The position numbers and the translations under genes were made by a program. 18,913 nucleotides of DNA from Deinococcales bacterium (GTDB taxonomy: Bacteria; Deinococcota; Deinococci; Deinococcales; JAAFIG01), in assembly GCA_031414595.1 (NCBI GenBank), contig JANNVX010000085.1:1-18913 (forward strand), written 5' to 3'. The notes beneath the pieces are model-generated. The model had not been told where the DNA came from. It ran no database searches and saw only the letters and a list, made by a program, of their open reading frames with translations. Each line of letters starts with the position of its first letter. The stretch's first letter is position 1. This document shows, in pieces, positions 1-15,020 of the stretch.

Positions 1-267
1 GGCTGATGGTGGTTATGCGGGTCAATTGCTTGAGTGGGTCAAAACCTTTTGTTGCTTTATCCTCGAGATTGTTAAGCGTTCTGATACAGCCAGTGGATTT
101 GTTGTCTTACCGCGTCGTTGGGTGGTGGAACGGTCGTTTGCTTGGCTGACTCGTTGTAGACGTTTAACTCGTGATTTTGAGGGCTTACCGAGTACAACCG
201 AATCTTGGGTTTATTTGGCGAATATTCAGTTGATTTTGAGACGTTTTGACACTTTATAAACACGCTC
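1..267 (+). mobile_element. Right end of an IS5-family (IS1031/IS427-like) insertion sequence
   Basis: Transposase C-terminus followed by ...TATAAACACGCTC, resembling IS1031-group terminal repeats. The TAA at 268-270 fits a TWA target duplication. The left end is outside the window. Confidence 0.8.
2..259 (+). CDS. IS5-family DDE transposase, C-terminal part (5'-truncated by window)
   Basis: Frame is open from base 2: ADGGYAG...[18 protein letters not shown]...RRL.RDFE, the hallmark IS5 C-terminal motif. Confidence 0.93.
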
Positions 268-307
268 TAAAAGAAAGAGACCAAAAAGCAAATTGCTTTT
301 TGGTCTC
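268..307 (-). terminator. Intrinsic terminator for a minus-strand transcript
   Basis: Perfect 14-bp inverted repeat GAGACCAAAAAGCA (277-290) / TGCTTTTTGGTCTC (294-307), followed on the minus strand by TTTCTTTT. Confidence 0.8.
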
Positions 308-483
308 CTCAGTACCCGTCTGGAATTGGGGATTCTAGTCCCACCACTCGGGTTTTTCGCGTTCTAAGATGTTTTTACCTTAGAGGCGATTGCAAACGCT
401 AGGCGTTTTGCAGGGTTAGCCCCGACGGGCACCTCCACCAACTAATTTAATATGTAACAGCTGGATCACCTCCTTTTTGGTAT
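270..483 (-). ncRNA. Putative structured small RNA or leader transcript (unassigned family)
   Basis: Extended -10 TGaTACACT (498-490) predicts a start near 483. Closing stem GUGCCCGUC (432-424) / GACGGGUAC (320-312) encloses several hairpins. G-U wobbles favour the minus strand. Ends at the 277-307 terminator. Confidence 0.55.
416..460 (-). CDS. Putative mini-ORF/leader peptide (M)LHIKLVGGGARRG, CTG start (alternative GTG at 469 gives MIQLLHIKLVGGGARRG)
   Basis: AAAGGAGGTGATCCAG immediately upstream. CTG lies 8 nt after GGAGG and the frame closes with TAA at 418-416. The start codon is non-canonical. Confidence 0.35.
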   Translation of the reverse strand: MLHIKLVGGGARRG

Positions 484-489
484 GGAAGA

Positions 490-499
490 AGTGTATCAT
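490..499. promoter_or_regulatory. Overlapping divergent -10 boxes: TATCAT (+, 494-499) and TG-a-TACACT (-, 498-490)
   Basis: TATCAT is 5 nt before the pfkB GTG (leaderless geometry). The opposite-strand box points into the small-RNA unit. Confidence 0.55.
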
Positions 500-504
500 A
501 CTTT

Positions 505-1491
505 GTGACCGAAAATGTAACTAAGAATGCTAATTCGAGCCTAAGCCATCCGACGTATGCACCACTTCTTTGTGTAGGGGACTTGAACTGGGATGTGCTG
601 GCAAAACCCGACCATATTTTACTTAGCGGCGGGGATACGACTGGACGGGTGCAACTAGCGCATGGTGGCTCGAGTGCAAATGTGGCGGTCTGGGCGCGGC
701 GGGTCGGAATGCCAACGGGTTTTTTAGGCAAAATCGGACGTGACCAATTTGGGCAGTTTGCCCTAGCCAAACTCGAGGAAGAACAGGTACAGCCACATAT
801 TATTTGGTCAGACACCAATGCCACTGGTGTGGTGTTGGTACTCATAGACTCGAGCGGGCAACGCAGTATGCTGACCAACCAAGGCGCAGATTTTTTTTTG
901 ATGCCGCATGAATTGCTCAAAAGTGTGATTGCCGCAGCCAAGCATGTGCATATCACGGCTTGGAGTTTATTCACCGACCCACCCAGAGCGGCGGCGCTCG
1001 AGGCAGCCAGAATTGCCACCGACGCAGGGGCAAGTGTCAGTTTTGACCCCGGAAGTTATCAGATGATTCGGCAAATGGGACGCGAAGAGTTCAAACGCGC
1101 CACCAAAGCCCTGTCCATAGATATTATGTTCCCGAATCTCGAGGAGGGCAGAGCATTAACCGGCGCTCAAAGTCCCGAGGATGTGCTGCACATTCTGCGT
1201 GAAGAATACCCACAAACCCTGATGTGCTTAAAACTCGATAAGGACGGCGCGATGATTGCCGATACCACTGGCATTTTTAAGGTCGAGGCTACCAAGGACA
1301 CGGTGATTGATGCGACTGGCGCAGGCGATAGTTTCTGCGGCGCGTTCCTAGGGCATTACTTGCAATCTAAAGACGCTCGGGCAGCCTCAAAATTAGCGGC
1401 TCAGGTCGCTGGTTGGGTGGTCAGTGTCTTTGGGGCAAGACCAGAAACAGATGCACGTCTCGAGGAACGGATTAAGGAATATGGGTTTTAA
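505..1491 (+). CDS. PfkB/ribokinase-family carbohydrate kinase
   Basis: GGSSANVA and DATGAGDSF PfkB signatures; 328 aa. Confidence 0.93.
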   Translation: MTENVTKNANSSLSHPTYAPLLCVGDLNWDVLAKPDHILLSGGDTTGRVQLAHGGSSANVAVWARRVGMPTGFLGKIGRDQFGQFALAKLEEEQVQPHIIWSDTNATGVVLVLIDSSGQRSMLTNQGADFFLMPHELLKSVIAAAKHVHITAWSLFTDPPRAAALEAARIATDAGASVSFDPGSYQMIRQMGREEFKRATKALSIDIMFPNLEEGRALTGAQSPEDVLHILREEYPQTLMCLKLDKDGAMIADTTGIFKVEATKDTVIDATGAGDSFCGAFLGHYLQSKDARAASKLAAQVAGWVVSVFGARPETDARLEERIKEYGF

Positions 1492-1502
1492 GTTCGCAAT
1501 TC

Positions 1503-1979
1503 TTACGGCTTGGTTAGACAGTTTTTTTGAATATCTTCCCAGTCAAAAAAATTGAGACGGTAGGTGATTTTTAGTTCAAACCACTGCTCTGTAAAAGTTT
1601 CACCTCGAGCATCTTGTTCAATCCCACTAATGCTACAAATGCGTAAATGACGACCAGATACCCATTTATTGGTTAAGTATCTATAGTATATATCTTGAGA
1701 ATCTGTTTCCTCACCTTTTACGAACCTAATAACACGTAAGTATTTACTTTTTTTTTCCTCTATTGTTCTTGCAACAAAATTAGTGGCAGGAAAATTACGC
1801 TGGTCATTTGGAGCAAGTACCTCTTCGACAATTCTTGTACCTTGATACGTAAACATTCTTTTAGCGCTATAAAATAGAGCAAAAATTCCTAAACAAGAAA
1901 TAAGGATTCTCACGACAAGATCGGCAGATTTTTTTGAAACTCGTAGAATCCAGAATTTATCATCATTTTGCACGGGCAT
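1503..1979 (-). CDS. Hypothetical single-pass membrane protein (~158 aa)
   Basis: ATG at 1979 (MPVQND) preferred because the longer start lies inside the upstream terminator. One hydrophobic segment (LVVRILISCLGIFALFY); AT-rich. Confidence 0.6.
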   Translation of the reverse strand: MPVQNDDKFWILRVSKKSADLVVRILISCLGIFALFYSAKRMFTYQGTRIVEEVLAPNDQRNFPATNFVARTIEEKKSKYLRVIRFVKGEETDSQDIYYRYLTNKWVSGRHLRICSISGIEQDARGETFTEQWFELKITYRLNFFDWEDIQKNCLTKP

Positions 1980-2014
1980 ACTTTTTATACGAGTGTTTAG
2001 GCAAATAGTTCCAT

Positions 2015-2049
2015 AAAAAATGACGAGGGCAATCAAGCCCTCGTCATTT
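2015..2049 (-). terminator. Intrinsic terminator of the foldase gene
   Basis: 13-bp inverted repeat AAATGACGAGGGC (2018-2030) / GCCCTCGTCATTT (2037-2049) with a T-run on the minus strand, 14 nt past the stop. Confidence 0.85.
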
Positions 2050-2063
2050 CAGTTTTTTACAGC

Positions 2064-4244
2064 TTACTTCTCGAGTTTAACTTCAATGCTCTTTTCGTCT
2101 GGGAAACGGACTTCTTTAGTAAATGGCTTAAAGCCTGTGGCTTCGACTTTCAGGGTATAGAAGCCGTTAGGGATTTTTGTCAGGCTGGCACGGCTGCCTT
2201 TTGCATCCACGGTTTGCAGCGTGGTTGTTCCCTCGAGCAAGGTCACTTTGGCTTCGGTTGCACCAACCAATTTAATCTCGAGCGGTGGATTCTTGGCGGC
2301 TTCGTCGGCTTTGCGCTTGTCATCTTCGGCTTTGCGTTTGGCTTCGTCAGCCGCTTTTTGCTTGGCGGCTTCGGCGGCTTTGGCTTCGAGCTGCTTGCCT
2401 ACACCTTTGTCGCCCGTGTAAAGGTTCTCAGCTTTGGCAGCTTTGACGGCGGCTGTTAGCCAGCTTTGTCCTTCTAGGCTGCGCTTAGAAGCAAGGGCTT
2501 TTTCTTTGGCATCTTCAAAGACTTCTTTAATCGGTTTGGTCTTTTTCTCGATAAAGCTCGAGACCCCAAGGATAATAAATTTCTTTTCCTTTTGAATCAC
2601 GTCAGATACTTCAAACCCACCCGCTTTAGCCAGTGCCTTGGCTTCAAAAACCACGGTTTTGTATTCTGGGGCAATACTTTCTGGGGTTAATGCGCCGAGT
2701 TCAGAGACTGTACCTTGTTGCTTGGCGGCACTCTTGGTGAAATCCCCGCCACCTTGGGCAATAAAGGCACTACGGAAGGCTTTAGCGGCATCAAGGCTGG
2801 TGAAGGTGGCTTCGTTGATGTTAGCACTGGCTGGAGTGCTGTAAAGGGCAACGTTATCGGTGTAATACTTGGCAACTTCGGCATCGGTGATGCTAATGTC
2901 TTTGGTTTTCCATTGTTTGGCTTGGTTGACAATATCTTGTTCTGAACCAAAGAAAGGCTGTCCGAGTTTTTTGGCAGCTTGAACACCGACCACACCACTA
3001 ATCAGGGTCTCGAGTGTTTGTGGTTTGAAGAACTGCTCGACCAGTTGGGCGCTCTGGGCTGCGCCGCCTTGTTGAATAAATTGTTGAATTTGTTGGTTTT
3101 GCAAATACACTAGGCGGTTGAGTTGATTGAGTCTAATTTCTTCTTTGCCAACTTTTGCTACGGTCGGGTTGAAATACTCAAGTTTTTGTTCAATACCATC
3201 TTTGGTAAATTCAACTTTGGCGTTCTTCTCGAGTTCTTTAATCCAGGCTTCGGTTGCTCCAGCCGATTTTAGGGCTTTGGCATCCTCTTCTAGTTTGGCT
3301 TTGGCTTCTTCAAAAGTTTGTTGACCGGCTGGGAAGTATTTTTCGACTTTTAAGAAGTAGAATTTGCCAGCTTCGGCAATTGGCGCAGTTACGCCACCAG
3401 ATTTGAGGGCAAAGGCAGCCGTAGCCACATTGGTTGGTAGTGCAAGTTGCACCACTGGGACTGGGGTTTTCTTACCTTTTTCTGAGGCAATTGCGCCATC
3501 TTCGGCTTTTGAAGATTCGTCTTTACTGAATTCGCGCACCAGCTTAATAAAATCCTCATTAGCTTTTAATTTGGCAGCCACTTGATCGGCGGTTTTTTGG
3601 TCATTGACAATAATTTGCCGAGCAGTGATGCGTTCTTCGTTTTTGTAATTGGTTTTGTTGAGTTCCCAAAAGAGTTTGACTTCGGCTTCGGTTACTTTTT
3701 GGGCTTCGTTAATTTCTTTTAAGCGGGCTTGAATTTTTTCTTGTATAGCAAAAGTTTCACGAAAGGTAACATCTGTAAAACCTTGACCCCGCAAAGCATT
3801 CTGGTAATCAGAGTCCTTAGCTAGATTGTTGGCTGCACGCCACTGAGTAATCCCTTTAGCAAGCTCATCACCACCCAATCGAATACTTCTCGAGTCAGCT
3901 TCTGCGGCTTTTAGCAGAGTTGTTTGGCTAAGCAATTGGTTTTTTAAATCTTCACCAATCACTCCATCTAAGCCAAGACCAAACAATTGATTCTGACTAC
4001 GGGTACGCTCCAAATCACGTTCAAAGACAGGTAAGCCATTCACGGTCATGACTGTTTTGCCGTTTGATTGTTGTCCGCCAAGTCCACCACCCAAGTTTGG
4101 GGTGAATTGAATCACCATACCAGCCAATAGCGCCACAGCCACAACGCCAAGCACAACACGAGAAACTAAGGTACGCTTCGAGACTGGTTCTTGGGTCTCG
4201 AGCGCGGCGTAACGGGGTTTACGGGGTGTTTCGTTCACTTGCAT
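2064..4244 (-). CDS. SurA/PrsA/PpiD-type parvulin peptidyl-prolyl isomerase (foldase) with Ala/Lys-rich linker and C-terminal PEGA-like domain
   Basis: N-terminal TM anchor, SurA_N-like helical region, rotamase motif (ITARQIIV...F..LVREFSKD.SSK..DG) and a second degenerate repeat. SD GAGGAGG spacing suggests the true start is GTG at 4238. Confidence 0.85.
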   Translation of the reverse strand: MQVNETPRKPRYAALETQEPVSKRTLVSRVVLGVVAVALLAGMVIQFTPNLGGGLGGQQSNGKTVMTVNGLPVFERDLERTRSQNQLFGLGLDGVIGEDLKNQLLSQTTLLKAAEADSRSIRLGGDELAKGITQWRAANNLAKDSDYQNALRGQGFTDVTFRETFAIQEKIQARLKEINEAQKVTEAEVKLFWELNKTNYKNEERITARQIIVNDQKTADQVAAKLKANEDFIKLVREFSKDESSKAEDGAIASEKGKKTPVPVVQLALPTNVATAAFALKSGGVTAPIAEAGKFYFLKVEKYFPAGQQTFEEAKAKLEEDAKALKSAGATEAWIKELEKNAKVEFTKDGIEQKLEYFNPTVAKVGKEEIRLNQLNRLVYLQNQQIQQFIQQGGAAQSAQLVEQFFKPQTLETLISGVVGVQAAKKLGQPFFGSEQDIVNQAKQWKTKDISITDAEVAKYYTDNVALYSTPASANINEATFTSLDAAKAFRSAFIAQGGGDFTKSAAKQQGTVSELGALTPESIAPEYKTVVFEAKALAKAGGFEVSDVIQKEKKFIILGVSSFIEKKTKPIKEVFEDAKEKALASKRSLEGQSWLTAAVKAAKAENLYTGDKGVGKQLEAKAAEAAKQKAADEAKRKAEDDKRKADEAAKNPPLEIKLVGATEAKVTLLEGTTTLQTVDAKGSRASLTKIPNGFYTLKVEATGFKPFTKEVRFPDEKSIEVKLEK

Positions 4245-4295
4245 TCCTCCTCGGTGCGTGCTAATACTTAATTAAGCGATTTTTACTCGCCAAGC

Positions 4296-4372
4296 GCGCC
4301 CGTAGCTCAGTCGGATAGAGCGTTGCCCTCCGGAGGCAAAGGTCAGAGGTTCGAATCCCCTCGGGCGCACCA
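4296..4372 (+). tRNA. tRNA-Arg (anticodon CCG)
   Basis: Acceptor stem GCGCCCG/CGGGCGC, D arm GCTC..GAGC, anticodon stem TTGCC/GGCAA with loop CTCCGGA, T loop TTCGAAT, encoded CCA; 77 nt. Confidence 0.97.
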
Positions 4373-4436
4373 TATCAGCACACCCTAGCCCCTCGGTTGG
4401 GGTTTTTAATTTCCCCTAAGCACTATATCAGCACAC
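4367..4436 (+). repeat. Direct repeat of tRNA 3' end: GCACCATATCAGCACAC (4367-4383) / GCACTATATCAGCACAC (4420-4436)
   Basis: 16/17 identity read directly from the sequence. Confidence 0.8.
4387..4407 (+). terminator. tRNA terminator
   Basis: AGCCCC-TCGGTT-GGGGTT hairpin followed by a T-run. Confidence 0.6.
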
Positions 4437-4484
4437 GAGTTTAACATGCCAAGACAAGGACAGGTGAGCTTCAAATGAACTTGG

Positions 4485-5450
4485 TCACTGGTTCATTAAG
4501 GTTTCTATCTCGAGCATAACATCTGTCGGCAATGCCCCAAACTGCATTGCCGACACGTTTTCTTCGACTTGAGAAACAGTCTTAAAACCTGGAATTGGCA
4601 CAAGGCTAGGGTGAAACGCCCAAAGCCACGCCAAAGCACCTTGGGCTAAAGTCCTGCCGCCTGTGCAGAGTAATTCTTTAATCTTCTCGAGTTGCCCTAG
4701 TTGCGCTGCTTGTTTGCCAGTCTCCAGATTCCATTTGAAACGGGTTCGCATGTCGTTGGCTGCAAACTGATGCCCCGCTTGGAGTTGACCAGTTAGTAAG
4801 CCCATACCCAGTGGTCGGCGCACCACCACCCCTAAATTGAGGTCGGCACATAGGTCGGGTAGTTCTCGGTTGCCCTCGAGAACATTCAGCAGTATGGGTA
4901 CAACACCAGCTTGGGTATCTCGAGCAAAAGCGCTTAAGGTTTCGGGTTGTTCATTGCACCAAGAATACGTACCAATCAGACCTTCTTGTACCAAGTCATC
5001 CAAAGTCCCAGCCACTTCGAGGGCTTCTATAAGCGGCAGGTCAAACAAATGCAGTTGGTAAATGTCTATTTTTTCGCGTTTTAGGCGTTTTAGGCTCTGC
5101 TCGAGGGCGTACCGGATTCCTGTTGGGGTGATGTCTGTCCCTGTGACTTCGGGGGGGTCGTCGGTAAACGTATAGCCAAATTTGGCAGCAATCATCACCT
5201 CGGCTCGAGTTTCATGCAGCACTTGCCCAAGCAGGGTTTCGGCATGACCACAACCGTAGACACCAGCCACATCAAAGAACCGAATTCCCAATTCGAGGGC
5301 GCGGTATAAGGCACGAATGGATTCGGCATCATCCACATCGCCGTAGCCCATGTAGCCGCCTCTATCCCAGAATGCCCCACCAATAGCCCAGCAGCCGAAG
5401 CCCATTGCCCCAACATCCAAGCCAGAACGCCCCAGCCCTCGAGATTTCAT
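4485..5450 (-). CDS. Aldo/keto reductase
   Basis: GFGCWAIGG, FDVAGVYG.G.AE, AKFG, SLKRL..EKIDIYQLH and PIPG motifs. Has its own leaderless -10 (TAAACT, 6 nt before ATG). Confidence 0.95.
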   Translation of the reverse strand: MKSRGLGRSGLDVGAMGFGCWAIGGAFWDRGGYMGYGDVDDAESIRALYRALELGIRFFDVAGVYGCGHAETLLGQVLHETRAEVMIAAKFGYTFTDDPPEVTGTDITPTGIRYALEQSLKRLKREKIDIYQLHLFDLPLIEALEVAGTLDDLVQEGLIGTYSWCNEQPETLSAFARDTQAGVVPILLNVLEGNRELPDLCADLNLGVVVRRPLGMGLLTGQLQAGHQFAANDMRTRFKWNLETGKQAAQLGQLEKIKELLCTGGRTLAQGALAWLWAFHPSLVPIPGFKTVSQVEENVSAMQFGALPTDVMLEIETLMNQ

Positions 5451-5459
5451 GGATTTAGT

Positions 5460-6245
5460 TTACTGTGATTTTCTTGCTTGTAAACCTTTCAAACGCTTTA
5501 TTTGCCAAGCATAATAAAGTTGAACCAACCGCGACTGACTCTGCGCCAACCGATACTGCATTTGATCGATGCTCGAGAATTGCGTGGGTAATGGCACGGA
5601 TTGAAGTAAACCCGCTTCTTGGGCTGACAAAAGCAGTTCATGTAGTCGTTTGCGTAATCCAAATGGCTGTGCAATTGCAAAAAAAGCCTGCCAATCAAAA
5701 ACACTTTGCAATTCGGGCATAGCTCGAGCCAACCAAACCATGTCGTTGCGGCTGTACTCGAGTCGGTGTAAGACGGGTTCTGGGCAACTTTGGGCAAAGA
5801 CTCGAATGGAATCTTTGAAAGTCACCCAGCCACGTATTTGCCAGTGCAGTAAGTATTTTTGCTTGGACATTAACCACTTATTGCTTGGGATGGCTCTGAG
5901 CAATGAACTGATGTTCTGTACGGCAAAATCCGAGGTGGCACTGATATTGAGTTTAGCATCATCAAGCAGTTGATAAGCGATACCGTGTTGCTCGAGGTTT
6001 CGCTGCCATTGTTCCTGATTAAAAATTCGTTGTTGTTGCAAAACCCAAGCCTGTTTGTAGATGCCTCTCAGACGTGGGGTCAGTTCATCTTGAAAGGCTG
6101 ATAAATTTTGATACAAGTGCGGCAATAAATCAAATTCGCTGCTGCTTAGCTGCTCAAAGTTGGTTTGTAATTTCCAGTGCTGATAGGCTTCAAGGGCTGC
6201 TTCTGGCTCACAACAACAGGCTTGCAGCAACAAGGTGGTTCTCAA
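5460..6245 (-). CDS. Nucleotidyltransferase-family protein (NTP_transf_5-like), catalytic motifs degenerate
   Basis: N-terminal LLLQA...ALEAY..W...LLP.LY.NL...RLRGIY...W pattern recognised from this family, plus LHW. TTG start overlaps the upstream TGA. Confidence 0.6.
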   Translation of the reverse strand: MRTTLLLQACCCEPEAALEAYQHWKLQTNFEQLSSSEFDLLPHLYQNLSAFQDELTPRLRGIYKQAWVLQQQRIFNQEQWQRNLEQHGIAYQLLDDAKLNISATSDFAVQNISSLLRAIPSNKWLMSKQKYLLHWQIRGWVTFKDSIRVFAQSCPEPVLHRLEYSRNDMVWLARAMPELQSVFDWQAFFAIAQPFGLRKRLHELLLSAQEAGLLQSVPLPTQFSSIDQMQYRLAQSQSRLVQLYYAWQIKRLKGLQARKSQ

Positions 6246-6913
6246 ATTGCCCTCGAGCGTTTCTCAAGTAACAATTGACGCAGCATCTGAAAATACCCGC
6301 TCTGTACTTGGTCTTTTTGGATACGGGTCATGTTCGATTGGTGAATTCGTCTTTTAACCAAGCACTGATTAAGCATCTGCACAGCAATCCCAAGTTGTTG
6401 GACTCGAGCCAGCCACAACATGGTGTCACCACTGTGCAAAAGTGGAAATAATCCCGCCAAATCAAAGACTATTCTCCGCGCCATCAGTGCCGAGGTACTG
6501 GGCAGTAATTGTGCTTCAGGTATAAACAGAACTTGGTTTTCTACTTCTGGGGTGTCCAGACTGATAAATTGCTCAATCGCCGTAAAAACCACACCAAGCA
6601 AAGGGTCTTGGGCAAAAGTCTGGAGTTGCATCTCGAGTTTTTCAGGCAACCAAAGGTCATCTTGGTCAAGAAGTGCAATATAATCACCCCGAGCCAAAGT
6701 AACGCCAGTATTACGAGCCGCCGCCGCTCCTTGATGTGTACAGATTTCAAGATGCACAGGGTAAGCTCGAGCCACCTGTGCAGTGTTATCAGTGCTTCCA
6801 TCATCAATCACAATCACCTCAAAAGGCTGCACCGTTTGGGCGAAAACACTATCTAAGGCTGCCCCAAGGTAACGCTCACCGTTCCAAGTTGGGATGATGA
6901 CACTGACATTCAT
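6242..6913 (-). CDS. Glycosyltransferase family 2
   Basis: VSVIIPTWN, VIDDGSTD, ARNTG and LLDQDD motifs. Start MNVSV at 6913 gives an ATGA overlap with the upstream gene. Confidence 0.93.
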   Translation of the reverse strand: MNVSVIIPTWNGERYLGAALDSVFAQTVQPFEVIVIDDGSTDNTAQVARAYPVHLEICTHQGAAAARNTGVTLARGDYIALLDQDDLWLPEKLEMQLQTFAQDPLLGVVFTAIEQFISLDTPEVENQVLFIPEAQLLPSTSALMARRIVFDLAGLFPLLHSGDTMLWLARVQQLGIAVQMLNQCLVKRRIHQSNMTRIQKDQVQSGYFQMLRQLLLEKRSRAI

Positions 6914-7575
6914 GCTTGTCTTCGCCTTGCGAGGTTTAGTTGTAGCACCCAAAGCAATTCTCGAGTGCTGAGTTTTGCCTCATGACCTTGGTTTTGCCGA
7001 TGAATTCGTTTGGTTAAAAGCACTTGTTCTGGGTATGCGAAACGCAATTGGTGGAAATTAGCTCGAGCAAACCAATCCACATCGGAATTGCTAATAAAAC
7101 TGGTATTGAACAGACCCACTTGTTGAAAAACTGTTTTTCGGACCAATAAAGCACTAGGCAAAAAAGCAGCAGCGCCCTCTAAGTAGCCTTGACGAATCAA
7201 ATGCCCAAAAGCCTGTGCATCGGATTCAAGTTGTGCAATCGTTTTACAAATTGCATAATCAGCATTTTTTAAGCTCTCGAGTTGTAACACCAATTTATCT
7301 GGATGCCATAAGTCATCTTGGTCAAGAAAAGCAATAAATTCTGCACCGGCATGAGCTATTCCCGAGTTTCGAGCAGCCCCAGGACCTTGATTCGTTTGGC
7401 TTAGAATTATCTTGGTATAGGCTTTGGCGATTTCTAGGCTTTGGTCGCTCGAGCCATCATCCACAACCACTAGCTCAATTGACACCTCAGTCTGAATTAA
7501 GGCACTTTCCAGAGTTTGGGCGAGGTACTTCTCACCGTTATAGACGGGAACAATCACACTTATTTGTGGTTTCAT
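6910..7575 (-). CDS. Glycosyltransferase family 2
   Basis: ISVIVPVYN, VVDDGSSD, ARNSG and FLDQDD motifs; ATGA overlap. Confidence 0.93.
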   Translation of the reverse strand: MKPQISVIVPVYNGEKYLAQTLESALIQTEVSIELVVVDDGSSDQSLEIAKAYTKIILSQTNQGPGAARNSGIAHAGAEFIAFLDQDDLWHPDKLVLQLESLKNADYAICKTIAQLESDAQAFGHLIRQGYLEGAAAFLPSALLVRKTVFQQVGLFNTSFISNSDVDWFARANFHQLRFAYPEQVLLTKRIHRQNQGHEAKLSTRELLWVLQLNLARRRQA

Positions 7576-8273
7576 GGTCTTTCCTCGAGTATTGGTACTT
7601 CTGGCAGAGCAACCATTCGATTTTGTTGGCGTTTACTGCGTCTGTGAATGGCTTGTAGTAACCAATGGCGAACCGCATTTAGATCTGATGTGATGTTTGT
7701 GTCGTGTAAACGATAGCCCAGTAAAATTTGTGGAAGCGTCACAAAACCAGATGATTGTTCACGCAGTCGTAAAAACCAATCAAAGTCTTCGCTTTGGGTC
7801 ATGGTCACATCAAAAACACCAATTTGATCAAACACTTCACGCCGCACCAAAGCAGCCCCAGTCGCAGGTAGAAAGGTTTTTATGATGCTGGGTTGACGGT
7901 TTGATAGCATAAAAAATTGTTCAACAAAACCTGTGACTACCCTAATTTCAGGATGTTTTTGCAGAACCTTGATTTGCAAATCAAGTTTATTTTGTACCCA
8001 CAGGTCATCGGCATCTAAAAAAGCAATCAGTTGACCTCGAGCCGCCGCCAGACCTCGGTTGCGAGCGGCGGCAATTCCAGTGTTTTTGGCTTGCTTAAAC
8101 ACAATTGCGCCCATTTGCTTAGCAATTTCGGCACTGTTGTCAGTGCTGCCATCATCTATCACCAGAATCTCGAGATTGGGGTAATTTTGGGCATGAATGC
8201 TGGCGATTGCCTCGGCAATAAAACGCTGCCCATTAAGGACTGGCATAATTACACTAATAAACGGTTGGTTCAT
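7572..8273 (-). CDS. Glycosyltransferase family 2
   Basis: ISVIMPVLN, VIDDGSTD, ARNRG, FLDADD and SEDFDW motifs; ATGA overlap. Confidence 0.94.
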   Translation of the reverse strand: MNQPFISVIMPVLNGQRFIAEAIASIHAQNYPNLEILVIDDGSTDNSAEIAKQMGAIVFKQAKNTGIAAARNRGLAAARGQLIAFLDADDLWVQNKLDLQIKVLQKHPEIRVVTGFVEQFFMLSNRQPSIIKTFLPATGAALVRREVFDQIGVFDVTMTQSEDFDWFLRLREQSSGFVTLPQILLGYRLHDTNITSDLNAVRHWLLQAIHRRSKRQQNRMVALPEVPILEERP

Positions 8274-9193
8274 ACTTGCTCGAGAAAAGATTTTATCGCA
8301 GGCGCAACAGCTTTTGGCGTATCACCAAGGTACAAGCGGTAACACGGCACGGTTCGGAGCAATTGGCTCATCTGGGCGAAACCTATCTGGCTGCTTCGCA
8401 ATTGAAACAGGCTATTGGGCGCAAGGGCTAATAATGCGGTTTGAGGATGCACTGCTTCAAAACCAAGCTGCCCGCCCAATGTCGGTAACAACACGGCTCG
8501 AATCGGGGCTTCTAGCACCAATTGTGGCGCGTGGGTTTTAGAGAGCATCACAAAGGCTTTCTCGAGGTCTGGGTTTTTGCGTGGCTTTAGAAAATTTAGC
8601 CGTGCTGCATTGTCAAAATGAAACTTCGCACTCGAGTATAAACTATAAACCATTGGTTCTGACTCGAGGGAAACAGCGCAGTAATCGTCACCCAGAAAAT
8701 CTAGTCCAGCTTGTAGTGCCAGCAGTGCAGTGGTGCTTTTTCCACTGCCGCCCCGCCCAATCAGCAATGCCGAGGCGTGTTTTGTGGCAATCGCTGCCGC
8801 GTGCAGCACGGTGATGGATTTCTTCTCGAGCCATGCCCTAAGAATCTGCACAAAAGGCGCACACTGCTGATAGGTTAGCAACGGAAAATTTGTTTGACAC
8901 AAAGCAAAATCAGCGCTTAGGAATTGCAACATGTCTTGATTATACGGGTCTAGGTAAAGCACACCATCCGAACCAATATCCTCGAGTTTTGGTAAATCGG
9001 TGCGAATGTCAATGGTTAAATCGGGCAGACCAGCAAAGGTTGGTAAGTGTAAAAAGGCTTCTGTGCTTTGTTCTAGCAGTTCTGGTACGCCAATCAGACG
9101 AATTTTTTGGTTAGCAAGCATCAAGTCTCGAGCCTGAGCTTCTTTTGGGCGCGTACCTATAACTCGCTGGATAAAAGCTGAGGCTTGGGTCAT
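8270..9193 (-). CDS. HPr kinase-related P-loop serine kinase (lasso-cluster PadeK-like)
   Basis: LHAAA...LLIGRGGSGKSTT (Walker A)...FLGDD, the His / P-loop / DD arrangement of HprK-family kinases. Confidence 0.85.
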   Translation of the reverse strand: MTQASAFIQRVIGTRPKEAQARDLMLANQKIRLIGVPELLEQSTEAFLHLPTFAGLPDLTIDIRTDLPKLEDIGSDGVLYLDPYNQDMLQFLSADFALCQTNFPLLTYQQCAPFVQILRAWLEKKSITVLHAAAIATKHASALLIGRGGSGKSTTALLALQAGLDFLGDDYCAVSLESEPMVYSLYSSAKFHFDNAARLNFLKPRKNPDLEKAFVMLSKTHAPQLVLEAPIRAVLLPTLGGQLGFEAVHPQTALLALAPNSLFQLRSSQIGFAQMSQLLRTVPCYRLYLGDTPKAVAPAIKSFLEQV

Positions 9194-9600
9194 ACTTTTT
9201 TACTTGTGACGGGCCAGCCTCGACTGGGTTCAACTTCGTGGATTGGGTCAAGCAGCAGTAACGCCTGCATATCATCAAATAACTCGAGTTCAGGTTTTTG
9301 CAGGGTCTGGCTTAGACTCGGCAACTCAATTTCTATTGTTTCTTGCGAACTGACCCGAATCAGTTCTTTTTCTAAGAGTTGGGTAATGAATTCTGGAATC
9401 AGTTGGTCTGCATTTTCAAGCCGCGTTTCAAGCTGCCTAGCAATACTCGAGACCGAATGATGCGCCACCACCAAAGCCCAAATCAGGGCAGCACTACCAC
9501 GTAAACTAAAGTACAAACCATTCTTAAAATCAATCACCATGGCTTCGCCGTCAAGCACTTCGGCGGCAACTTGAGGGCTGTTTAACTCATAAAAACTCAT
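9190..9600 (-). CDS. PqqD-family / RiPP recognition element (RRE) protein with C-terminal leader/core-like extension (136 aa)
   Basis: Start MSFYEL at 9600, 1 nt after the upstream stop. EVLDGEAMVIDFKNGLYFSL.GSAALIW...IARQL...FITQLLEKELI is the PqqD fold pattern. Tail LQKPELELFDDMQALLLLDPIHEVEPSRGWP. Confidence 0.85.
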   Translation of the reverse strand: MSFYELNSPQVAAEVLDGEAMVIDFKNGLYFSLRGSAALIWALVVAHHSVSSIARQLETRLENADQLIPEFITQLLEKELIRVSSQETIEIELPSLSQTLQKPELELFDDMQALLLLDPIHEVEPSRGWPVTSKKV

Positions 9601-9601
9601 G

Positions 9602-10384
9602 CTACATTCTAACCAAAAAAACGTTTTTAAGGTAATTTTTGACCCGACGACCTTGCCATAAAAGCCCACCAAACCAGTTTTTAGCTGCCAATGACACCGC
9701 ATCATCTTTGGGTTGAAAGCCAAGTAAAACCTTGGTTGCCTCAAGACCAAACGGATTATTTTGATTGTCGGATACCCCATGGATAATCGCAAAGTGCTGG
9801 TCGGTCTCGAGACATAAGCCTATCAACTGCACCAAATCGCGTTCGGTAAGACTGATTTTTAATTGCTGGTCATGGGGATGAAGACGAGCGTCGTTTTTAC
9901 TCAGTACCGCCCCAAGCCGAACACAAATCACCGATAAAGCCCGGTCATGACTATGCACCCGAGCGAGGGCTTCAGCAAAGGCTTTGCTTGCCCCGTAAAA
10001 ATTGGTTGGGTAGGGGGCATCAGTCTCGAGAATCGGTTGGTGCATATGCCCCCAGACCGCTTGAACACTGCTCATCAGAATCACACGGCGACACTTGGCG
10101 GCTCTGGCAGCCAGTAAAATATGTTGCACCCCAATAATGTTAGGTGCGACCTGCAATTGCCAATCAATGCCATAATCCAATACCCCCAAATGCAGCACCG
10201 TATCCACCCCTTGGCAAAGCTCGAGCAGCGCCTGATAATCCTCGAGTTGTGCCTTGGTAAACGGCGTAAGTGCTGTTTTTGGTTCTCGAGCATCGGTAAA
10301 TATTAACTCGTACTCAGTTTGCAAATATGGAATCAGTAACCCTGCTACTTTTCCGGCTGCTCCTGTAATCAGTACACGCTGCAT
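9602..10384 (-). CDS. NAD(P)-dependent epimerase/dehydratase (extended SDR, uronate-dehydrogenase-like)
   Basis: VLITGAAGKVA Rossmann motif, MSS, YGASK. The -10 TAGACT 7 nt upstream favours ATG 10384 over 10390. Confidence 0.9.
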   Translation of the reverse strand: MQRVLITGAAGKVAGLLIPYLQTEYELIFTDAREPKTALTPFTKAQLEDYQALLELCQGVDTVLHLGVLDYGIDWQLQVAPNIIGVQHILLAARAAKCRRVILMSSVQAVWGHMHQPILETDAPYPTNFYGASKAFAEALARVHSHDRALSVICVRLGAVLSKNDARLHPHDQQLKISLTERDLVQLIGLCLETDQHFAIIHGVSDNQNNPFGLEATKVLLGFQPKDDAVSLAAKNWFGGLLWQGRRVKNYLKNVFLVRM

Positions 10385-10607
10385 CGGCATGAGTCTACAA
10401 TTTTTGGGACAACCAAACCTTCAAGCCCTCGAGATTAGCAGTTTTGAAGGGTATTGATGTTTTTCTCGAGCAAATAGAAGGGCAGTTTATTCTGCTGCAC
10501 AAAGAGTATCAAGTCATAGTCCAAAAAAATAGTCCAGCAAGCATTTAAGCCTAAGATGTGAACCAACTTATCAAGTCTATGATAGGTTTGTAATCAGGAG
10601 AAAAATC

Positions 10608-11033
10608 GTGAAAAAGACTTTAATCATTGGCTTGGTGGCTCTAGGAATTGTATCTATTGGATTGGCGACACATACGGCTGGTAATATTTTTAATACTTCG
10701 GCTGAGGTCGTCACAGAAAGCACTGGCACATTCAAACAAGGCTTTGTTCATTTGTTTGTCGAAGAAGGCGATACAATTACCAATACTGTCGCCCTTGAAA
10801 TAGGCAAAGAATACACAATTGTGGCAATGGGTGATGATGAAATCCTGAGTGATATTGACTTGGTTGTGCGTGACAGCCGAGGTAAAATTTTAAGACAAGA
10901 TACCAAAACCAATTCTTCTCGAGCCGAAGTGACATTTATACCAACCACCAGATTTACTGAAATTGATGCAACTGCCAAGGAAATGCCATCTTCCAATGGG
11001 TATGGTTCAATCCTAATTTTTGAACAAGAATAA
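10608..11033 (+). CDS. Secreted beta-sandwich protein, pre-peptidase C-terminal (PPC)-like domain
   Basis: SD AGGAG; signal peptide MKKTLIIGLVALGIVSIGLA; G.EYTIVA.GD...DIDL.V.D..G..L..D pattern. Confidence 0.7.
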   Translation: MKKTLIIGLVALGIVSIGLATHTAGNIFNTSAEVVTESTGTFKQGFVHLFVEEGDTITNTVALEIGKEYTIVAMGDDEILSDIDLVVRDSRGKILRQDTKTNSSRAEVTFIPTTRFTEIDATAKEMPSSNGYGSILIFEQE

Positions 11034-11037
11034 ATGA

Positions 11038-11073
11038 GAAGGCTCGAGGGTAAGCAACCCTCGAGCCTTTTTT
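11038..11073. terminator. Terminator between convergent genes (probably bidirectional)
   Basis: AAGGCTCGAGGGT / ACCCTCGAGCCTT stem followed by a T-run on +. Each arm contains CTCGAG. Confidence 0.85.
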
Positions 11074-11078
11074 ACTGC

Positions 11079-12599
11079 TTACTTCTCGAGTGATGTGGTG
11101 CGTAAACCTAGGTACGAACTGTTTGAGTAATGCTCAAAGCCTTTAACATAGCCAGCAATCCCTTCGTATTGTGCCGAGTGGAAAAGCGGGACCATTGGCA
11201 CGAGTTGCAAAATCCGTTCTTGGGCTTGGTCATAGATTTTTTTGCGGTCATCTTGCTTAGAAACTGTTCGTCCTTGCTCGAGTAATTTATCTACTTGGGC
11301 ATCGGAGAAACTCATAAAATTACCGCCACCTTTGGTATGAAAGACGTTATACAAGTAATCGTCTGGGTCGCCTTGTCCAGATTCACCAATGATCGTGCTG
11401 ACAAATTTCTTGCCGACAAAATTTGGTAGGTACACACTCCATTCTTCAGCTTGAATTTTCAGGTTGACACCAATTTTAGCCAGTTGTGCTTGCAGCACTT
11501 CGGCTGGAGTTCGCAGGAAATCGTAGGTACTGGTGACTTTTAAGTCCAGCGATAAACCATTGGCATACCCTGCTTCTTTGAGGAGTGCTTTGGCTTTTTC
11601 TAAGTTTGGTGTGCCATACGGACTATCATCAAAGGAGTAGAACCCGCCGCCCGGAATGGTTGTGCCTTTTGCCACCACACCGCCCGTGCCAAAAAGCGCC
11701 ACATCCACAACTTCTTTGGGGTTAATGGCGTAAGCAATGGCTTGGCGCACCCGCACATCATCAAGTGGTTTTTCTTTGAGGTTAAAGTACAAGCTGCGGA
11801 AATTAGCCGATAATCCGCCGACCACCTCGAGTTTTGGGTCGCGTTTAATTGTGGCAATATCGGCGGCTGGCACGTACTCAATCCAGTCAACTGTACCCGT
11901 GCGAAGGGCGGTACTGCGGGCAGTCGCATCGGGCAAGTACGAATAGGTGATACCGTCTAGGTACGGTAATTTATTGCCTTTGCTGTCGCGCTCCCAGTAG
12001 ACAGGGTTTTTCTTTAAGACCATGCGGGTGCTAGGAATATATTCACTAAAGACAAAAGGTCCTGTACCAACGGGTTTAGTGCCGATGGTGGCTGCCGCTT
12101 CTTTAGGGATAATCACATTCAAACTAAAGGCGAGTTTAGACAACAACGGCGAGAATGGTTGCTTAAGTTTAATCACCACGGTTGTTGCATTTGGGGCTGT
12201 GACTGATGCCACTTGGTCAAATGAATTGGCTCGAGGCGACTTCACACTTGGGTCTTTGATGCGGTTAATCGAAAATGCCACATCGGTGGCATCCAAGGTG
12301 CGTCCATTGTGGAATTTCACGCCTTGGCGCATGGTGAATGTCCAAGTCAGGTTGTCTTTGCTAGTGCGCCAACTAAACGCCAAAGACGGAATGATTTTAC
12401 CTTTGGGGTCAAAACGCACCAAGGTATCGTAGACATTCTCGAGTTGATTACGGGTAGCCGTGGCATTGGTGGTGTGCGGGTCTAAGCCCACAGGGTCGGC
12501 TTGCATACCGGCTCTTAGGATACCTCCAGATTTCTGGGCTAACCCCAGACTGATGAGTGTGACCGCACCGAGAATAAGAATACCGACTTGCTTTTTCAT
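11079..12599 (-). CDS. ABC transporter substrate-binding protein, family 5 (peptide/nickel/opine type)
   Basis: LDPH, P.LA.SW..S.D..TWTF.MR.GVKFHNG, PVGTGPF and RVRQAIAYAI motifs; SD AGGAGG; signal peptide. Confidence 0.95.
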   Translation of the reverse strand: MKKQVGILILGAVTLISLGLAQKSGGILRAGMQADPVGLDPHTTNATATRNQLENVYDTLVRFDPKGKIIPSLAFSWRTSKDNLTWTFTMRQGVKFHNGRTLDATDVAFSINRIKDPSVKSPRANSFDQVASVTAPNATTVVIKLKQPFSPLLSKLAFSLNVIIPKEAAATIGTKPVGTGPFVFSEYIPSTRMVLKKNPVYWERDSKGNKLPYLDGITYSYLPDATARSTALRTGTVDWIEYVPAADIATIKRDPKLEVVGGLSANFRSLYFNLKEKPLDDVRVRQAIAYAINPKEVVDVALFGTGGVVAKGTTIPGGGFYSFDDSPYGTPNLEKAKALLKEAGYANGLSLDLKVTSTYDFLRTPAEVLQAQLAKIGVNLKIQAEEWSVYLPNFVGKKFVSTIIGESGQGDPDDYLYNVFHTKGGGNFMSFSDAQVDKLLEQGRTVSKQDDRKKIYDQAQERILQLVPMVPLFHSAQYEGIAGYVKGFEHYSNSSYLGLRTTSLEK

Positions 12600-12632
12600 A
12601 CGTCCTCCTAAATGGGAATAAGTGTCTAAACA

Positions 12633-13463
12633 TTAGGCTTTGCGTAAACGAGGGTCGAGTGTATCGCGCAGACCATCGCCAAGTAAGTTAAAACCGAGTA
12701 CCGTAATCGTAATTGCAATTCCAGGACCAACACTAATCCACGGCGAAGTCTCGAGCAGTTGACGACCATCGGCAATCATTTGACCCCAAGATGGGGCTGG
12801 GGGCTGCGGACCTAGCCCTAGATAAGACAAGGAGGCTTCAGAAAGAATCGCAAATGCCAAGCGCAAACTGGTTTCGATAATTAAAGGCGATAAGGCATTG
12901 GGCAGCACATGGCGCAGTAAAATCAGGCTGCTCTTGTTGCCAAGGGCTTGACTGGCTTCAACAAAAACCTCTTCGCGCACCCGCATTACACTTGCCCTTG
13001 CCACTCGAGTAAACGGCGCAGCGTAGACAGTCGCAATGGTTAAGGTTAAATTCCAGAATCCTCCACCCGCAAAGGCAAGCAGGGCAATCGCCAGTAAAAT
13101 CGCGGGGAAGGCAAGTAAAATATCGGTAAAACGCATGATGATCGTGTCCACCCAGCCACGGTAAAAACCAGCCAATGAACCCGCCACGCCACCGACAAGG
13201 AGCGCAATACTGACCGACAAAAATGCGACTGCCAAAGACTGCCGAGCGCCATGCAGCACCCTCGAGAAGGTATCGCGCCCGTAGATGTCTGTGCCGAATA
13301 AATGTTGCCAGCTTGGATTTTGCAAACGATCTTCGGTGTTAAAAGCGATTGGGTCAAATGGCGCAATTTGTGCGGCAAATAACGCCGATAAAAGCATCAC
13401 AAGCACCAACACACCACCAATCAAAATACTTGGTGAACGCAATAGCTGCTTAAAAAAAGTCAC
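12633..13463 (-). CDS. ABC transporter permease, DppC/OppC type
   Basis: HLFGTDIYGRD, FVEASQALG (EAA loop), EASLSYLGLG...SWG and NLLGDGLRD.LDPR motifs. Confidence 0.95.
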   Translation of the reverse strand: MTFFKQLLRSPSILIGGVLVLVMLLSALFAAQIAPFDPIAFNTEDRLQNPSWQHLFGTDIYGRDTFSRVLHGARQSLAVAFLSVSIALLVGGVAGSLAGFYRGWVDTIIMRFTDILLAFPAILLAIALLAFAGGGFWNLTLTIATVYAAPFTRVARASVMRVREEVFVEASQALGNKSSLILLRHVLPNALSPLIIETSLRLAFAILSEASLSYLGLGPQPPAPSWGQMIADGRQLLETSPWISVGPGIAITITVLGFNLLGDGLRDTLDPRLRKA

Positions 13464-13482
13464 GCGAACCTCAACGCTAGGG

Positions 13483-14433
13483 TCATGCGAACCTCACTCG
13501 AGGGTCTATCAGGGCATACAGCACATCCACCAAAACATTGACCAAGACAAAACCAGCCGCCACCACCAGCACTGCACCTTGAACCACAGGATAATCGCGC
13601 AAGTTAATACCCTCGAGCGCAAAGCGCCCAATGCCCGGTAAGCCAAAAATTTGTTCGATAATCACTGTGCCGCCCAGCAAATTGCCGATTTGTAAACCAA
13701 TCACCGTCACCACTGGAATCAGGGCGTTTCTAAAGGCATGTCGGTACACCACAGCCCGTTCGGTTAAACCCTTGGCTCTGGCTGTGCGGGTATAATCAAG
13801 CATCAGCACCTCGAGTAAACTGCTGCGAACAATTCGTGTGGTAGCAGCCGCTAAAGAAAGCCCGAGGGCTAACGAAGGCAAAAACATGCTTTTTAAGTTA
13901 CCAATTGGGTCTTCGCTAAACAGTGCATACCCAGAAGGTGGGAACCAACGCAATTGCAAAGAAAAGAACAAAACACACAAAATCGCAATCCAAAAACTAG
14001 GCGCAGCAATACCTAAGAGCGCAAAAGAACTGGCAACAGTGTCAATCCATTTACCACGGTTGTTGGCGGCGGCGACACCAAGCGGCACAGCAATAATAAT
14101 CGCAATCACCAAGGCAAATAAAGTCAGTTGCAGTGTCACAGGGAAACGAAGCGCCAAATCGGTCAGCACAGGTCGTTCGGTGCGAAGGCTCGAGCCAAGG
14201 TCAGCTTGTAAAACACCACCAAACCATTTGGCAAATTGGGTTTGAATCGGTAAGTCCAAGCCAAATAGTCGGCGCAGTTCTTCACGGCGCTCAGTGGTGA
14301 TGTTGGTGTCTAAACCAATCAGATTGGTGACCACATCGCCCGGCACAAGTCGCACCATTGCAAAAACCAAAATCATCACCCCAAACAGCGAAATCAGGGC
14401 TAAACCAAGGCGTTGTAACAAAAAAGAAATCAT
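13483..14433 (-). CDS. ABC transporter permease, DppB/OppB type
   Basis: PGD, DLGSS, DYTRTARAKGL, IEQIFGLPGIG, RDYPVVQG and IDPRVR motifs. Start MISFL at 14433 overlaps the regulator stop (ATGA). Confidence 0.95.
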   Translation of the reverse strand: MISFLLQRLGLALISLFGVMILVFAMVRLVPGDVVTNLIGLDTNITTERREELRRLFGLDLPIQTQFAKWFGGVLQADLGSSLRTERPVLTDLALRFPVTLQLTLFALVIAIIIAVPLGVAAANNRGKWIDTVASSFALLGIAAPSFWIAILCVLFFSLQLRWFPPSGYALFSEDPIGNLKSMFLPSLALGLSLAAATTRIVRSSLLEVLMLDYTRTARAKGLTERAVVYRHAFRNALIPVVTVIGLQIGNLLGGTVIIEQIFGLPGIGRFALEGINLRDYPVVQGAVLVVAAGFVLVNVLVDVLYALIDPRVRFA

Positions 14434-15020
14434 AAAAGGGCGGGTGTACCAACCCAAAGAACCCGCAATTCTTGCTCAGAATCGTTGCGCCAGACATGAC
14501 GTAAACCAGATTGAAAATGAGCGCTGTCGCCAACCGTTAAAAGATGGTTTTCTGTACCAATGGTCAGACGCATCTGCCCTTGCAAGACAAATAAAAATTC
14601 TTCACCACTGTGGGTCATCGGTTCAGAGGCATAATGCGGCGGATAAATCATCAGGAGCGGCTCGAGTTGACGTTCTGGTAATTGGCTACCAATTCGCCCG
14701 TAGCGAACTTGGCTTTGGTCTAAACGATAAAAATGCGTGTCCGATGCCTTATGTACCAAAGTATTGCTGCTGGCAATATCTAAAAAGTAAGAAGTTGGCA
14801 CACCCAAAGCCTGTGCAATTTTGACCATCGAAGTGACCGAAGGGGTGGCGGTGCTGTTCTCGATTTGTGATAAAAAAGGCGCACTCAGACCCGCTTTTTG
14901 TGCCAAAGAGCGCAAGGTCAAACCCAACTGCTTACGGCGGTTCTGCACCATCTTGCCAAGACGAGGCTCTTCGGCTTGAGGCGGTGGGCTTGGCACTGAT
15001 GTTAAAAATTGAGAAACCAT
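14430..15020 (-). CDS. XRE-family HTH transcriptional regulator with C-terminal cupin domain
   Basis: LTLRSLAQKAGLSAPFLSQIENS..TPS HTH; HSGEEFLFVLQG...L..GDSAHF....H.W.N cupin motif. Confidence 0.93.
   Translation of the reverse strand: MVSQFLTSVPSPPPQAEEPRLGKMVQNRRKQLGLTLRSLAQKAGLSAPFLSQIENSTATPSVTSMVKIAQALGVPTSYFLDIASSNTLVHKASDTHFYRLDQSQVRYGRIGSQLPERQLEPLLMIYPPHYASEPMTHSGEEFLFVLQGQMRLTIGTENHLLTVGDSAHFQSGLRHVWRNDSEQELRVLWVGTPALL

Follow-up and report, generated by a model that had tools for sequence, protein, structure and literature searches.

A predicted small mRNA of Deinococcota that joins an extended complement of the 16S rRNA tail to a near-cognate start codon

Introduction

What could a long complement to the 3' end of 16S rRNA be doing close to the 5' end of a predicted small transcript, with only a poor start codon behind it? 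The question is raised by positions 460-476 of an 18,913-nt stretch of DNA from a Deinococcales bacterium (contig JANNVX010000085.1), here called the window, in which an earlier note had marked the complement on the minus strand. The reading that we prefer, and to which we assign a probability of about 60%, is that 269-483 on the minus strand specifies an rre-type small mRNA that stands alone, a Deinococcota analogue of RNAs described in alpha-proteobacteria, and that 460-476 is its predicted ribosome-docking site.

The rre RNAs were described by Hahn et al. (2016, RNA Biol 14:1353, PMC5711450). rreB of Bradyrhizobium is a stand-alone mRNA of 165 nt with its own promoter and terminator, and it carries a 17-nt perfect complement to the 16S 3' end that takes in the first base of its GUG start codon; the small open reading frame (sORF) has 14 amino acids in rreB and 18 in rreR, and the Shine-Dalgarno sequence (SD) of rreB is predicted to be partly buried in a hairpin. 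The RNA co-sediments mainly with 30S subunits and is very weakly translated, replacing its start codon with a stop lengthens its half-life, and its 20-fold overproduction had no effect on growth; the authors argue against simple titration of ribosomes. The RreB and RreR peptides are each conserved within their own clade, and a BLASTN survey placed the rre genes within Caulobacterales, Rhizobiales, Rhodobacterales and Rhodospirillales only, their function being unknown (PMC5711450).

The complement at 460-476 and its conservation

460-476, minus strand: extended Shine-Dalgarno sequence AAAGGAGGUGAUCCAGC; 15 nt pair perfectly with the host 16S tail (476-462), G461 forms a G-U pair, and C460 is the first base of the start codon

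The plus strand at 460-476 reads GCTGGATCACCTCCTTT, and the corresponding minus-strand RNA AAAGGAGGUGAUCCAGC. The host assembly consists of 120 contigs (4.49 Mb) in which the full 16S gene is unassembled, with no matches to RF00177; the last ~120 nt of the host 16S are present on two contig ends (C53 and C95), ending ...GGTGCGGTTGGATCACCTCCTTTCT. The host's own tail is GTTGGATCACCTCCTTTCT, with GTTGG in place of GCTGG, and the 17-nt complement claimed in the earlier note is thus perfect against the common bacterial consensus, but not exactly so against the host. Pairing with the host tail is perfect over 15 nt (476-462), extends to 17 nt if one G-U pair is admitted (G461 opposite U), and reaches 20 nt with three G-U pairs (476-457), counting the 3' strand of helix 45; the host tail differs in a single base, which still pairs as G-U.

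When both strands of the whole genome were searched, exact complements of the host tail of at least 13 nt occurred in three places only, namely the antisense strand of the two 16S gene ends and 460-476, and the next-longest was a single 12-mer; apart from the rRNA genes, no longer complement of the 16S tail than 460-476 occurs in the 4.49 Mb. Rfam gave no match to SSU rRNA in the window, which bears out the earlier observation that no other rRNA sequence flanks the complement.

The extended match is also retained in relatives, and not merely its GGAGG core. All 50 of the 50 distinct homologue 5' ends form 15-22 contiguous pairs with the 16S tail when G-U pairs are allowed, and Watson-Crick-only runs of 7-18, on the assumption of a host-like 16S tail in all relatives; the tail string GGATCACCTCCTTTCT was found exactly in 5/5 relatives checked, as a string match anywhere in the genome. 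Substitutions in the SD are mostly A-to-G transitions opposite a U of the tail. An exception is the window genus, with AAAAAGG instead of AGAAAGG, which places an A opposite C.

Promoter, terminator and signal in RNA libraries

269-483, minus strand: whole small RNA gene, ~215 nt, running from A483, the predicted transcription start site (TSS), through the terminator's final T-run
490-498, minus strand: extended -10 element TGATACACT, with TG at 498-497 and the hexamer TACACT at 495-490, 6 nt upstream of A483
269-310, minus strand: rho-independent terminator, a 17-bp stem followed by UCUUUCUUUU

A start of transcription near 483, as suggested in the earlier note, agrees with the conserved extended -10 box that ends 6 nt before the predicted TSS at A483; TGnTAnnnT or TAnnnT boxes stand at equal spacing to a conserved 5' A in every homologue inspected. 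The SD lies within 8 nt of this predicted 5' end. At the other end of the gene, a terminator follows every homologue copy inspected, and its stem covaries: 10 pairs are changed on both sides, and all pairs with such changes in the homologue alignment fall in the terminator stem. The box at 490-498 was not listed by a simple sigma-70 scan, nor the hairpin at 269-310 by a simple terminator scan. When folded, the 215-nt RNA has a minimum free energy of -83.7 kcal/mol (z -6.58 versus shuffles).

Contigs of four metatranscriptome runs, from four studies and from relatives at 90-100% identity, span parts of 320-520, the stretches covered being 350-520, 335-469, 320-469 and 413-469. The minus-strand transcript on which the earlier note relied is in this way matched as to region, but not as to strand: the matches are contigs, which carry neither strand nor level and may stem from DNA in the libraries. 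Gaps elsewhere in 150-900 are uninformative, given that the contigs come from relatives in which only the conserved RNA is alignable. One contig (X17) reaches 520, 37 nt past the predicted TSS, and this makes a sharp 5' end at 483 less likely for the relative concerned. The contigs X18-X20 share an end at 469, a point 14 nt within the predicted RNA, and are at most a weak hint of an RNA end near 469; if 469 were the true 5' end, the RNA would be without the SD core. Second-strand cDNA libraries commonly lose the first 10-20 nt.

Distribution among genomes and neighbouring genes

BLAST detected the conserved block in 16 of the 18 remaining family genomes and not in any of 22 genomes from other families. 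A covariance model (R1), built from 17 copies without the terminator, detected exactly one copy in 18 of the 19 family genomes, the one without it being 57% complete. In an order sample of 151 genomes the same model matched 17/18 genomes of family f1, 34/37 of f2, 1/36 of f3, 0/23 of f4 and 2/36 of f5; f2, the second family with the gene, is Trueperaceae to judge from its record titles. The two matches in f5 (17 and 24 bits) look like chance and were rejected, L075 lying in apparent coding sequence and L070 being devoid of the motifs. A pattern scan of public genomes yielded at least 16 loci confirmed by the model among 80 listed; among the matches listed, those confirmed belong by title to Deinococcales, Trueperaceae, Deinococcaceae and Deinococcota bacteria, to Truepera radiovictrix and Truepera sp., to one 'uncultured bacterium' and to a Gaiellaceae bacterium, the weakest at 17.6 bits. 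The locus, with its own promoter, ORF and terminator, is conserved in more than 50 genomes; the genomes behind this and the other conservation counts are kin and not independent.

505-1491, plus strand: PfkB-family carbohydrate kinase, the divergent neighbour, outside the element (Pfam PF00294, E 1.9e-49)
2-259, plus strand: 3' part of a DDE (IS4/IS5-type) transposase (PF01609, PF13586), ending 10 nt from the RNA terminator

The neighbours vary between genomes, which indicates that the RNA is a stand-alone gene rather than a leader. The transposase adjoins it in the window genome only, and a divergent ORF of pfkB-like size is found at 12 of 17 first-family copies, all three of those tested being PfkB by Pfam. 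In Trueperaceae the neighbours are genes for Fe-S proteins, BioY or GNAT proteins, mostly on the opposite strand; the GNAT neighbours score far below all NCBIfam cut-offs, including that of RimI, and for this reason no link to the ribosome was drawn. Genus g5 has an unannotated ORF of 147-150 aa that lies ~18 nt past the terminator on the same strand, and in one genome (G009) dnaX lies downstream of the RNA gene.

A mini-ORF with a near-cognate start codon

416-460, minus strand: mini-ORF with CUG start (460-458), 14 sense codons and stop UAA (418-416); frame, start and stop are conserved
432-436, minus strand: second GGAGG, inside the ORF and within GUGGAGGU; near-invariant in both families, with G-to-U in genus g2 only

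The frame reads CUG UUA CAU AUU AAA UUA GUU GGU GGA GGU GCC CGU CGG GGC UAA and would be translated as LLHIKLVGGGARRG, in which residue 1 would be Met upon initiation. The CUG at 460-458 lies 8 nt past GGAGG and is the sole near-cognate start codon at SD distance in the window RNA, just as the earlier note had named a weak CTG the only well-spaced start. A near-cognate start (CUG, AUU, AUA or AUC) occurs 7-9 nt past GGAGG in all 50 distinct homologues and is in frame in 48 of them, and AUG, GUG or UUG was found at this position in 0/50. The combination to which that note had pointed, a strong candidate docking site with a poor start on a small predicted minus-strand transcript, is accordingly a feature of every distinct homologue (50/50). 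The window's family and the Deinococcaceae-type copies have CUG; Trueperaceae have AUU, AUA or AUC, the third base of this AUH start being U, A or C, never G. Some copies contain, in addition, an AUG, GUG or UUG in frame at codon 6-7.

Between the SD and the conserved stop, the frame closed by that stop is uninterrupted in 47 of 50 distinct sequences; the other two frames are uninterrupted in 4 and 22 of 50 and hold 75 and 35 stops. A stop codon (TAA, TAG or, once, TGA) is present in 48/50, and in the same number the distance from start to stop is always 39, 42 or 45 nt, that is, 13-15 codons. Where the distance from SD to stop is 47, 49, 51, 52 or 53 nt instead of 50, the start shifts along with it; insertions and deletions between start and stop thus come in threes while the spacing from SD to start varies by single bases, which is a coding signature. 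The exceptions are L073, with an in-frame stop upstream of its AUC start, and the two genomes of genus g2, in which a 2-nt deletion in the loop moves the CUG into a different ORF of 23 codons and the usual stop is gone, so that the peptide sequence is not kept universally.

The N-terminal half of the peptide is variable, and the C-terminal half conserved as ...[V/T][G/S]GG[A/T]R[R/L]G. Synonymous changes occur in the C-terminal codons of both families (CGU/CGC; CGG/CGA/CGC; GGC/GGG). These codons overlap P3, a helix described below, and the second GGAGG, and constraint on the RNA is there inseparable from constraint on the peptide; part of the 'coding' signal could be RNA structure.

Predicted structure and an internal mimic of the 16S tail

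467-482, minus strand: P0, a small 5' hairpin that pairs UACC (482-479) with GGUG (470-467) around the loop AAAAAGGA and covers part of the SD
438-464, minus strand: P2, a hairpin in the ORF that pairs 464-458 with 444-438 and has a variable loop
424-433, minus strand: 5' strand of P3, GGUGCCCGUC, spanning ORF codons 10-13; partner 311-320
311-320, minus strand: 3' strand of P3, GACGGGUACU; partner 424-433
382-390, minus strand: mimic of the 16S tail, AUCGCCUCU, able to form 9/9 pairs with SD bases 473-465 (GGAGGUGAU)

In the 19-sequence alignment A3, 92% of cells are paired in P0, for which the register in the second family is ACCAC/GUGGU. P2 has changes on both sides in 4 of its 7 pairs, and P3, with 90.7% of cells paired, has one-sided changes only (both in A3). 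Taken together, P2 and P3 have 86.7% of cells paired as against 25-50% for slid controls, in 19 model-fitted sequences. For 36 second-family sequences aligned with MAFFT, RNAalifold returned just 15 pairs, none with a compensatory change; in that family P1 (the helix of SD and mimic), P3 and P4 rest on inspection and on a model-fitted alignment.

Two genera have the mimic as GGAUCGCCUCC, many Trueperaceae as GGACCGCCUCC and genus g5 as GCCGUCCCU. The 9/9 pairs of the window copy were matched by 1 of 200 shuffles, and an ungapped 9/9 mimic is present in 28 of 60 distinct homologues versus 5 of 60 in a reversed control; in the remaining 32, the short Deinococcaceae-type copies among them, it is absent or bulged. 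Between lineages the SD-mimic pairs change from A:U to G:C at two positions, a compensatory pattern. The duplex energies have a median z of -1.58, with 22 of 56 below -2, a noisy measure for which the search region was too short in some sequences. Since P1 crosses P3, the two would form a pseudoknot or alternative folds.

Interpretation and rival explanations

Under the rre-type reading, a transcript beginning at about A483 would present a complement of 15-20 nt to the 16S tail within 8 nt of its 5' end, and this super-SD would hold the 30S subunit at a strength well beyond that of ordinary SDs. The ribosome would meet, 8 nt on, a weak start, which is CUG here and AUU, AUA or AUC among Trueperaceae, and at which initiation should be rare and sensitive to IF3 proofreading. 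Because the 14-codon frame runs through P2 and the 5' strand of P3, a translating or waiting ribosome would have to remodel the RNA; P0 and, in many copies, the 16S-tail mimic may vie with the ribosome for access to the SD. What would probably result is ribosome-dependent control of the RNA's own fate, with a very low yield of peptide, as in rreB. The roles suggested in the earlier note, as a sponge, in hibernation or as a sensor of 16S-end quality, are putative.

The docking site might also act with no peptide at all, as an untranslated 30S decoy or 5' stabiliser whose apparent ORF is a by-product of RNA structure, either shielding the 5' end against 5'-to-3' decay in the manner of STAB-SD elements or titrating or marking a subset of 30S. 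An SD within 8 nt of the predicted 5' end, a start codon of the weakest class that is never AUG, GUG or UUG, nucleotide conservation beyond the needs of the peptide and the precedent of the STAB-SD elements would all suit such a role. rreB speaks for both sides, being found mainly with 30S and very weakly translated on the one hand, and overproduced 20-fold with no effect on growth on the other (PMC5711450). What a pure docking site does not predict is that the frame should be kept within A/U-rich variable loops, with indels in threes between start and stop and freedom from stops in 47 of 50 sequences versus 4 and 22; the third base of AUH, which is never G, points in addition to selection on the strength of the start codon. 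We consider a decoy unlikely. If, conversely, the 13-15-aa peptide were the product of an ordinary small-protein gene, the long SD would offset the weak start and the structure, and the 3' part would be a stabilising UTR. The frame and the C-terminal residues are conserved, with some synonymous changes, in two families, and the RreB and RreR peptides are conserved within clades (PMC5711450). Genus g2, however, has the SD and CUG in front of an unrelated 23-codon frame, the N-terminal half is not conserved, and the conserved codons coincide with P3 and the near-invariant GGAGG, which selection on the peptide leaves unexplained; the persistence of the weakest starts argues that very little product, or product only under certain conditions, is intended, and no linked modifying or partner gene stands among the neighbours. 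This, too, strikes us as an improbable account.

In a cis-acting leader or attenuator, translation of the mini-ORF would control read-through of the terminator into a downstream gene; the earlier note had proposed a regulatory leader peptide. A small peptide frame has gained comparative support, but 'leader' suits the RNA badly, there being no conserved gene past the terminator. Promoter, SD, ~14-codon ORF, competing helices and terminator do resemble those of leader-peptide attenuators, and the 147-150-aa ORF ~18 nt past the terminator in g5 and the dnaX of G009 would be in keeping with one; yet the genes downstream differ and often converge on the RNA, with GNAT or BioY on the opposite strand in Trueperaceae and an IS fragment likewise here, and the ORF has no run of codons for one regulatory amino acid. 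On these grounds the class of leader-peptide attenuators was rejected, and we regard control of this kind as very unlikely. Lastly, the 16S-sense string on the plus strand could have arisen by chance or be what is left of an inverted 16S 3' end, an idea with hardly any credibility beside the lack of rRNA similarity beyond about 20 nt, the status of the site as the sole non-rRNA complement of at least 13 nt in the genome, and its retention, together with promoter, ORF and terminator, across more than 50 genomes.

The rre-type reading can be carried one step further, to a proposal that we put forward as a long shot: the RNA might be a self-gated gauge of initiation capacity, in which the mimic closes the super-SD, and free 30S or relaxed IF3 proofreading opens it and allows near-cognate initiation. 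The output of such a gauge, if it is real, would be ribosome-dependent decay or a released anti-SD mimic, and would in turn act on SD-led as against leaderless translation in Deinococcota. The occurrence of an equal architecture (5' super-SD, weak start, ~14 codons and own terminator) in a distant phylum argues that the arrangement itself is selected, and an independent appearance here and in alpha-proteobacteria would, if true, make 'extended-SD mini-mRNAs' a general bacterial device. The Deinococcota RNAs offer handles that are new with respect to rre, namely the weakest near-cognate starts, a 16S-tail mimic with compensatory changes, and the g2 frameshift lineage, a natural frameshift that separates 'translation' from 'peptide'. 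Truepera radiovictrix, which by record title has a copy, is cultured and harmless, and with this carrier the role of such RNAs becomes testable in a second system.

Comparison with known RNAs

The likeness to rreB and rreR is one of architecture, by description, the sequences having been compared only indirectly through the Rfam CC2171 model, and the rre side of what follows is confined to the available portions of the source (PMC5711450). Both are stand-alone small transcripts with their own promoter and terminator (here by motifs and conservation); in both, the 16S complement, 16-17 nt long, takes in the spacer and the initial base of the start codon, which is C460 here, and the minimum of 16 nt complementary to the own 16S that defines the rre class compares with 15 perfect pairs, one G-U and one C:G here, making 17. 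In both, an sORF of ~14-18 codons with a weak start follows the extended SD (13-15 codons in 48 of 50 sequences here), the SD lies partly in a predicted hairpin with a few free 5' bases, and the genomic context is not conserved across clades. The two differ in phylum (Deinococcota as opposed to alpha-proteobacteria), in start codon (CUG or AUU/AUA/AUC as opposed to GUG, or AUG in Azospirillum) and in the spacing from SD to start, which is 7-9 nt here; the mimic, the second GGAGG in the ORF and P3 are present here, and none is mentioned for rre in those portions of the report. Binding to 30S and translation were measured for rreB, whereas here they are predicted. A partial search of the literature brought up no report of rre-type RNAs outside alpha-proteobacteria.

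Several other classes share single traits with the locus. STAB-SD elements (B. thuringiensis cry3A, phage SP82) are SDs near the 5' end that have no start codon and bind 30S independently of productive translation. The closeness of an SD-like sequence to the 5' end is common to both; membership of that class was rejected in view of the near-cognate start at 7-9 nt and the conserved in-frame ORF. Regulators in which an SD is sequestered or an anti-SD mimicked include RNA thermometers and the C-rich sRNAs RoxS and 6C. As in the former, an internal CCUCC-type tract pairs with the SD here and could gate ribosome access, and as in the latter the freed tract could in principle pair with other SDs; unlike in either, SD and mimic would reside on one stand-alone RNA, ~80 nt apart and with the mimic past the ORF. 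Near-cognate starts behind strong or extended SDs recall infC (IF3), whose AUU/AUA autoregulation depends on weak, proofreading-sensitive initiation. AUU and AUA starts are found together with extended SDs in S. aureus (PMC13009471), and CUG, AUC and AUA starts are in use in Deinococcus for dnaA, rpsL and infC (PMC2830850); all of these, infC included, are full-length protein genes, in contrast to the 13-15 codons on a stand-alone RNA considered here.

At gathering thresholds, Rfam reported only a tRNA in the whole window, and ARAGORN found neither tmRNA nor tRNA at the locus. SRP RNA, a candidate on account of the dnaX downstream of the RNA in one relative, was rejected on finding the canonical copy on another contig. 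The 6S RNA model had no match anywhere in the genome and was silent in the Deinococcus and Thermus controls as well; the fold of the RNA is not a 6S-like rod. Matches with E up to 10 in 200-620 were at chance level apart from RF01867 (CC2171), the one family to touch the locus, at 14.8 bits and E 0.6 against a gathering score of 75; membership was rejected, as only the SD region and a GC-rich hairpin were matched and 95 central model positions were skipped. CC2171 is a Caulobacter sRNA that is expressed also in Methylorubrum and whose function is given as unknown (bioRxiv 10.1101/2022.01.24.477521). The RF01867 consensus itself begins ...GAAAGGAGGUGAUCCAG.UGU, which is a 17-nt complement of the 16S tail followed by GUG, and ends in a terminator, from which we infer that CC2171 is a Caulobacter RNA of the rre type.

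Frameshift of the CUG frame in genus g2

In the two genus g2 copies of the small RNA (L037 and L038), the loop of P2, the hairpin inside the mini-ORF, is short by a 2-nt deletion, which shifts the CUG-initiated frame; the shifted frame is a 23-codon ORF of unrelated sequence, and it runs through the internal tract that mimics the 16S tail. The second, in-ORF GGAGG reads GUAGG in both copies.

Relationship to the Caulobacter RNA CC2171

The first 17 nt of the consensus of the Rfam model RF01867 (CC2171) are complementary to the 16S tail of alpha-proteobacteria, and GUG comes next; for this reason, the family, listed as an 'sRNA', probably represents the rre small mRNAs in Caulobacter.

Genes beside the RNA and in the window

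2-259, + strand: transposase gene of the DDE (IS4/IS5-type) kind, 3' part only, ending 10 nt from the sRNA terminator
4296-4372, + strand: tRNA-Arg (CCG)
L018:1701-2147, with equivalents in L014-L017 and L019, same strand as the sRNA: ORF of 147-150 aa, conserved in genus g5

When neighbours were compared, relatives carried other genes at the position of the transposase fragment, and an insertion sequence therefore appears to have landed beside the RNA gene in the window's genome. The genus g5 ORF starts about 18 nt past the sRNA terminator, and its product had no match in Pfam or NCBIfam.

Host 16S genes and genome composition

In the last ~500 nt of both assembled host 16S 3' ends (L002, contig C53; L003, contig C95), a hairpin with a T-run lay within about 130 nt of the 16S 3' end and was followed by non-rRNA sequence; on this arrangement, the 16S genes of the genome seem to be unlinked from 23S.

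CTCGAG occurs 23,235 times in the 4.49-Mb genome (5.2 per kb), with 95 copies in window 1-18913, and the relatives' loci are also rich in it, terminator stems included. Several GC-rich 6-bp palindromes are nearly missing from the genome (GGCGCC, 3 copies; TGCGCA, 2; GTGCAC, 6; CGCGCG, 3; CGTACG, 5; GGGCCC, 0).
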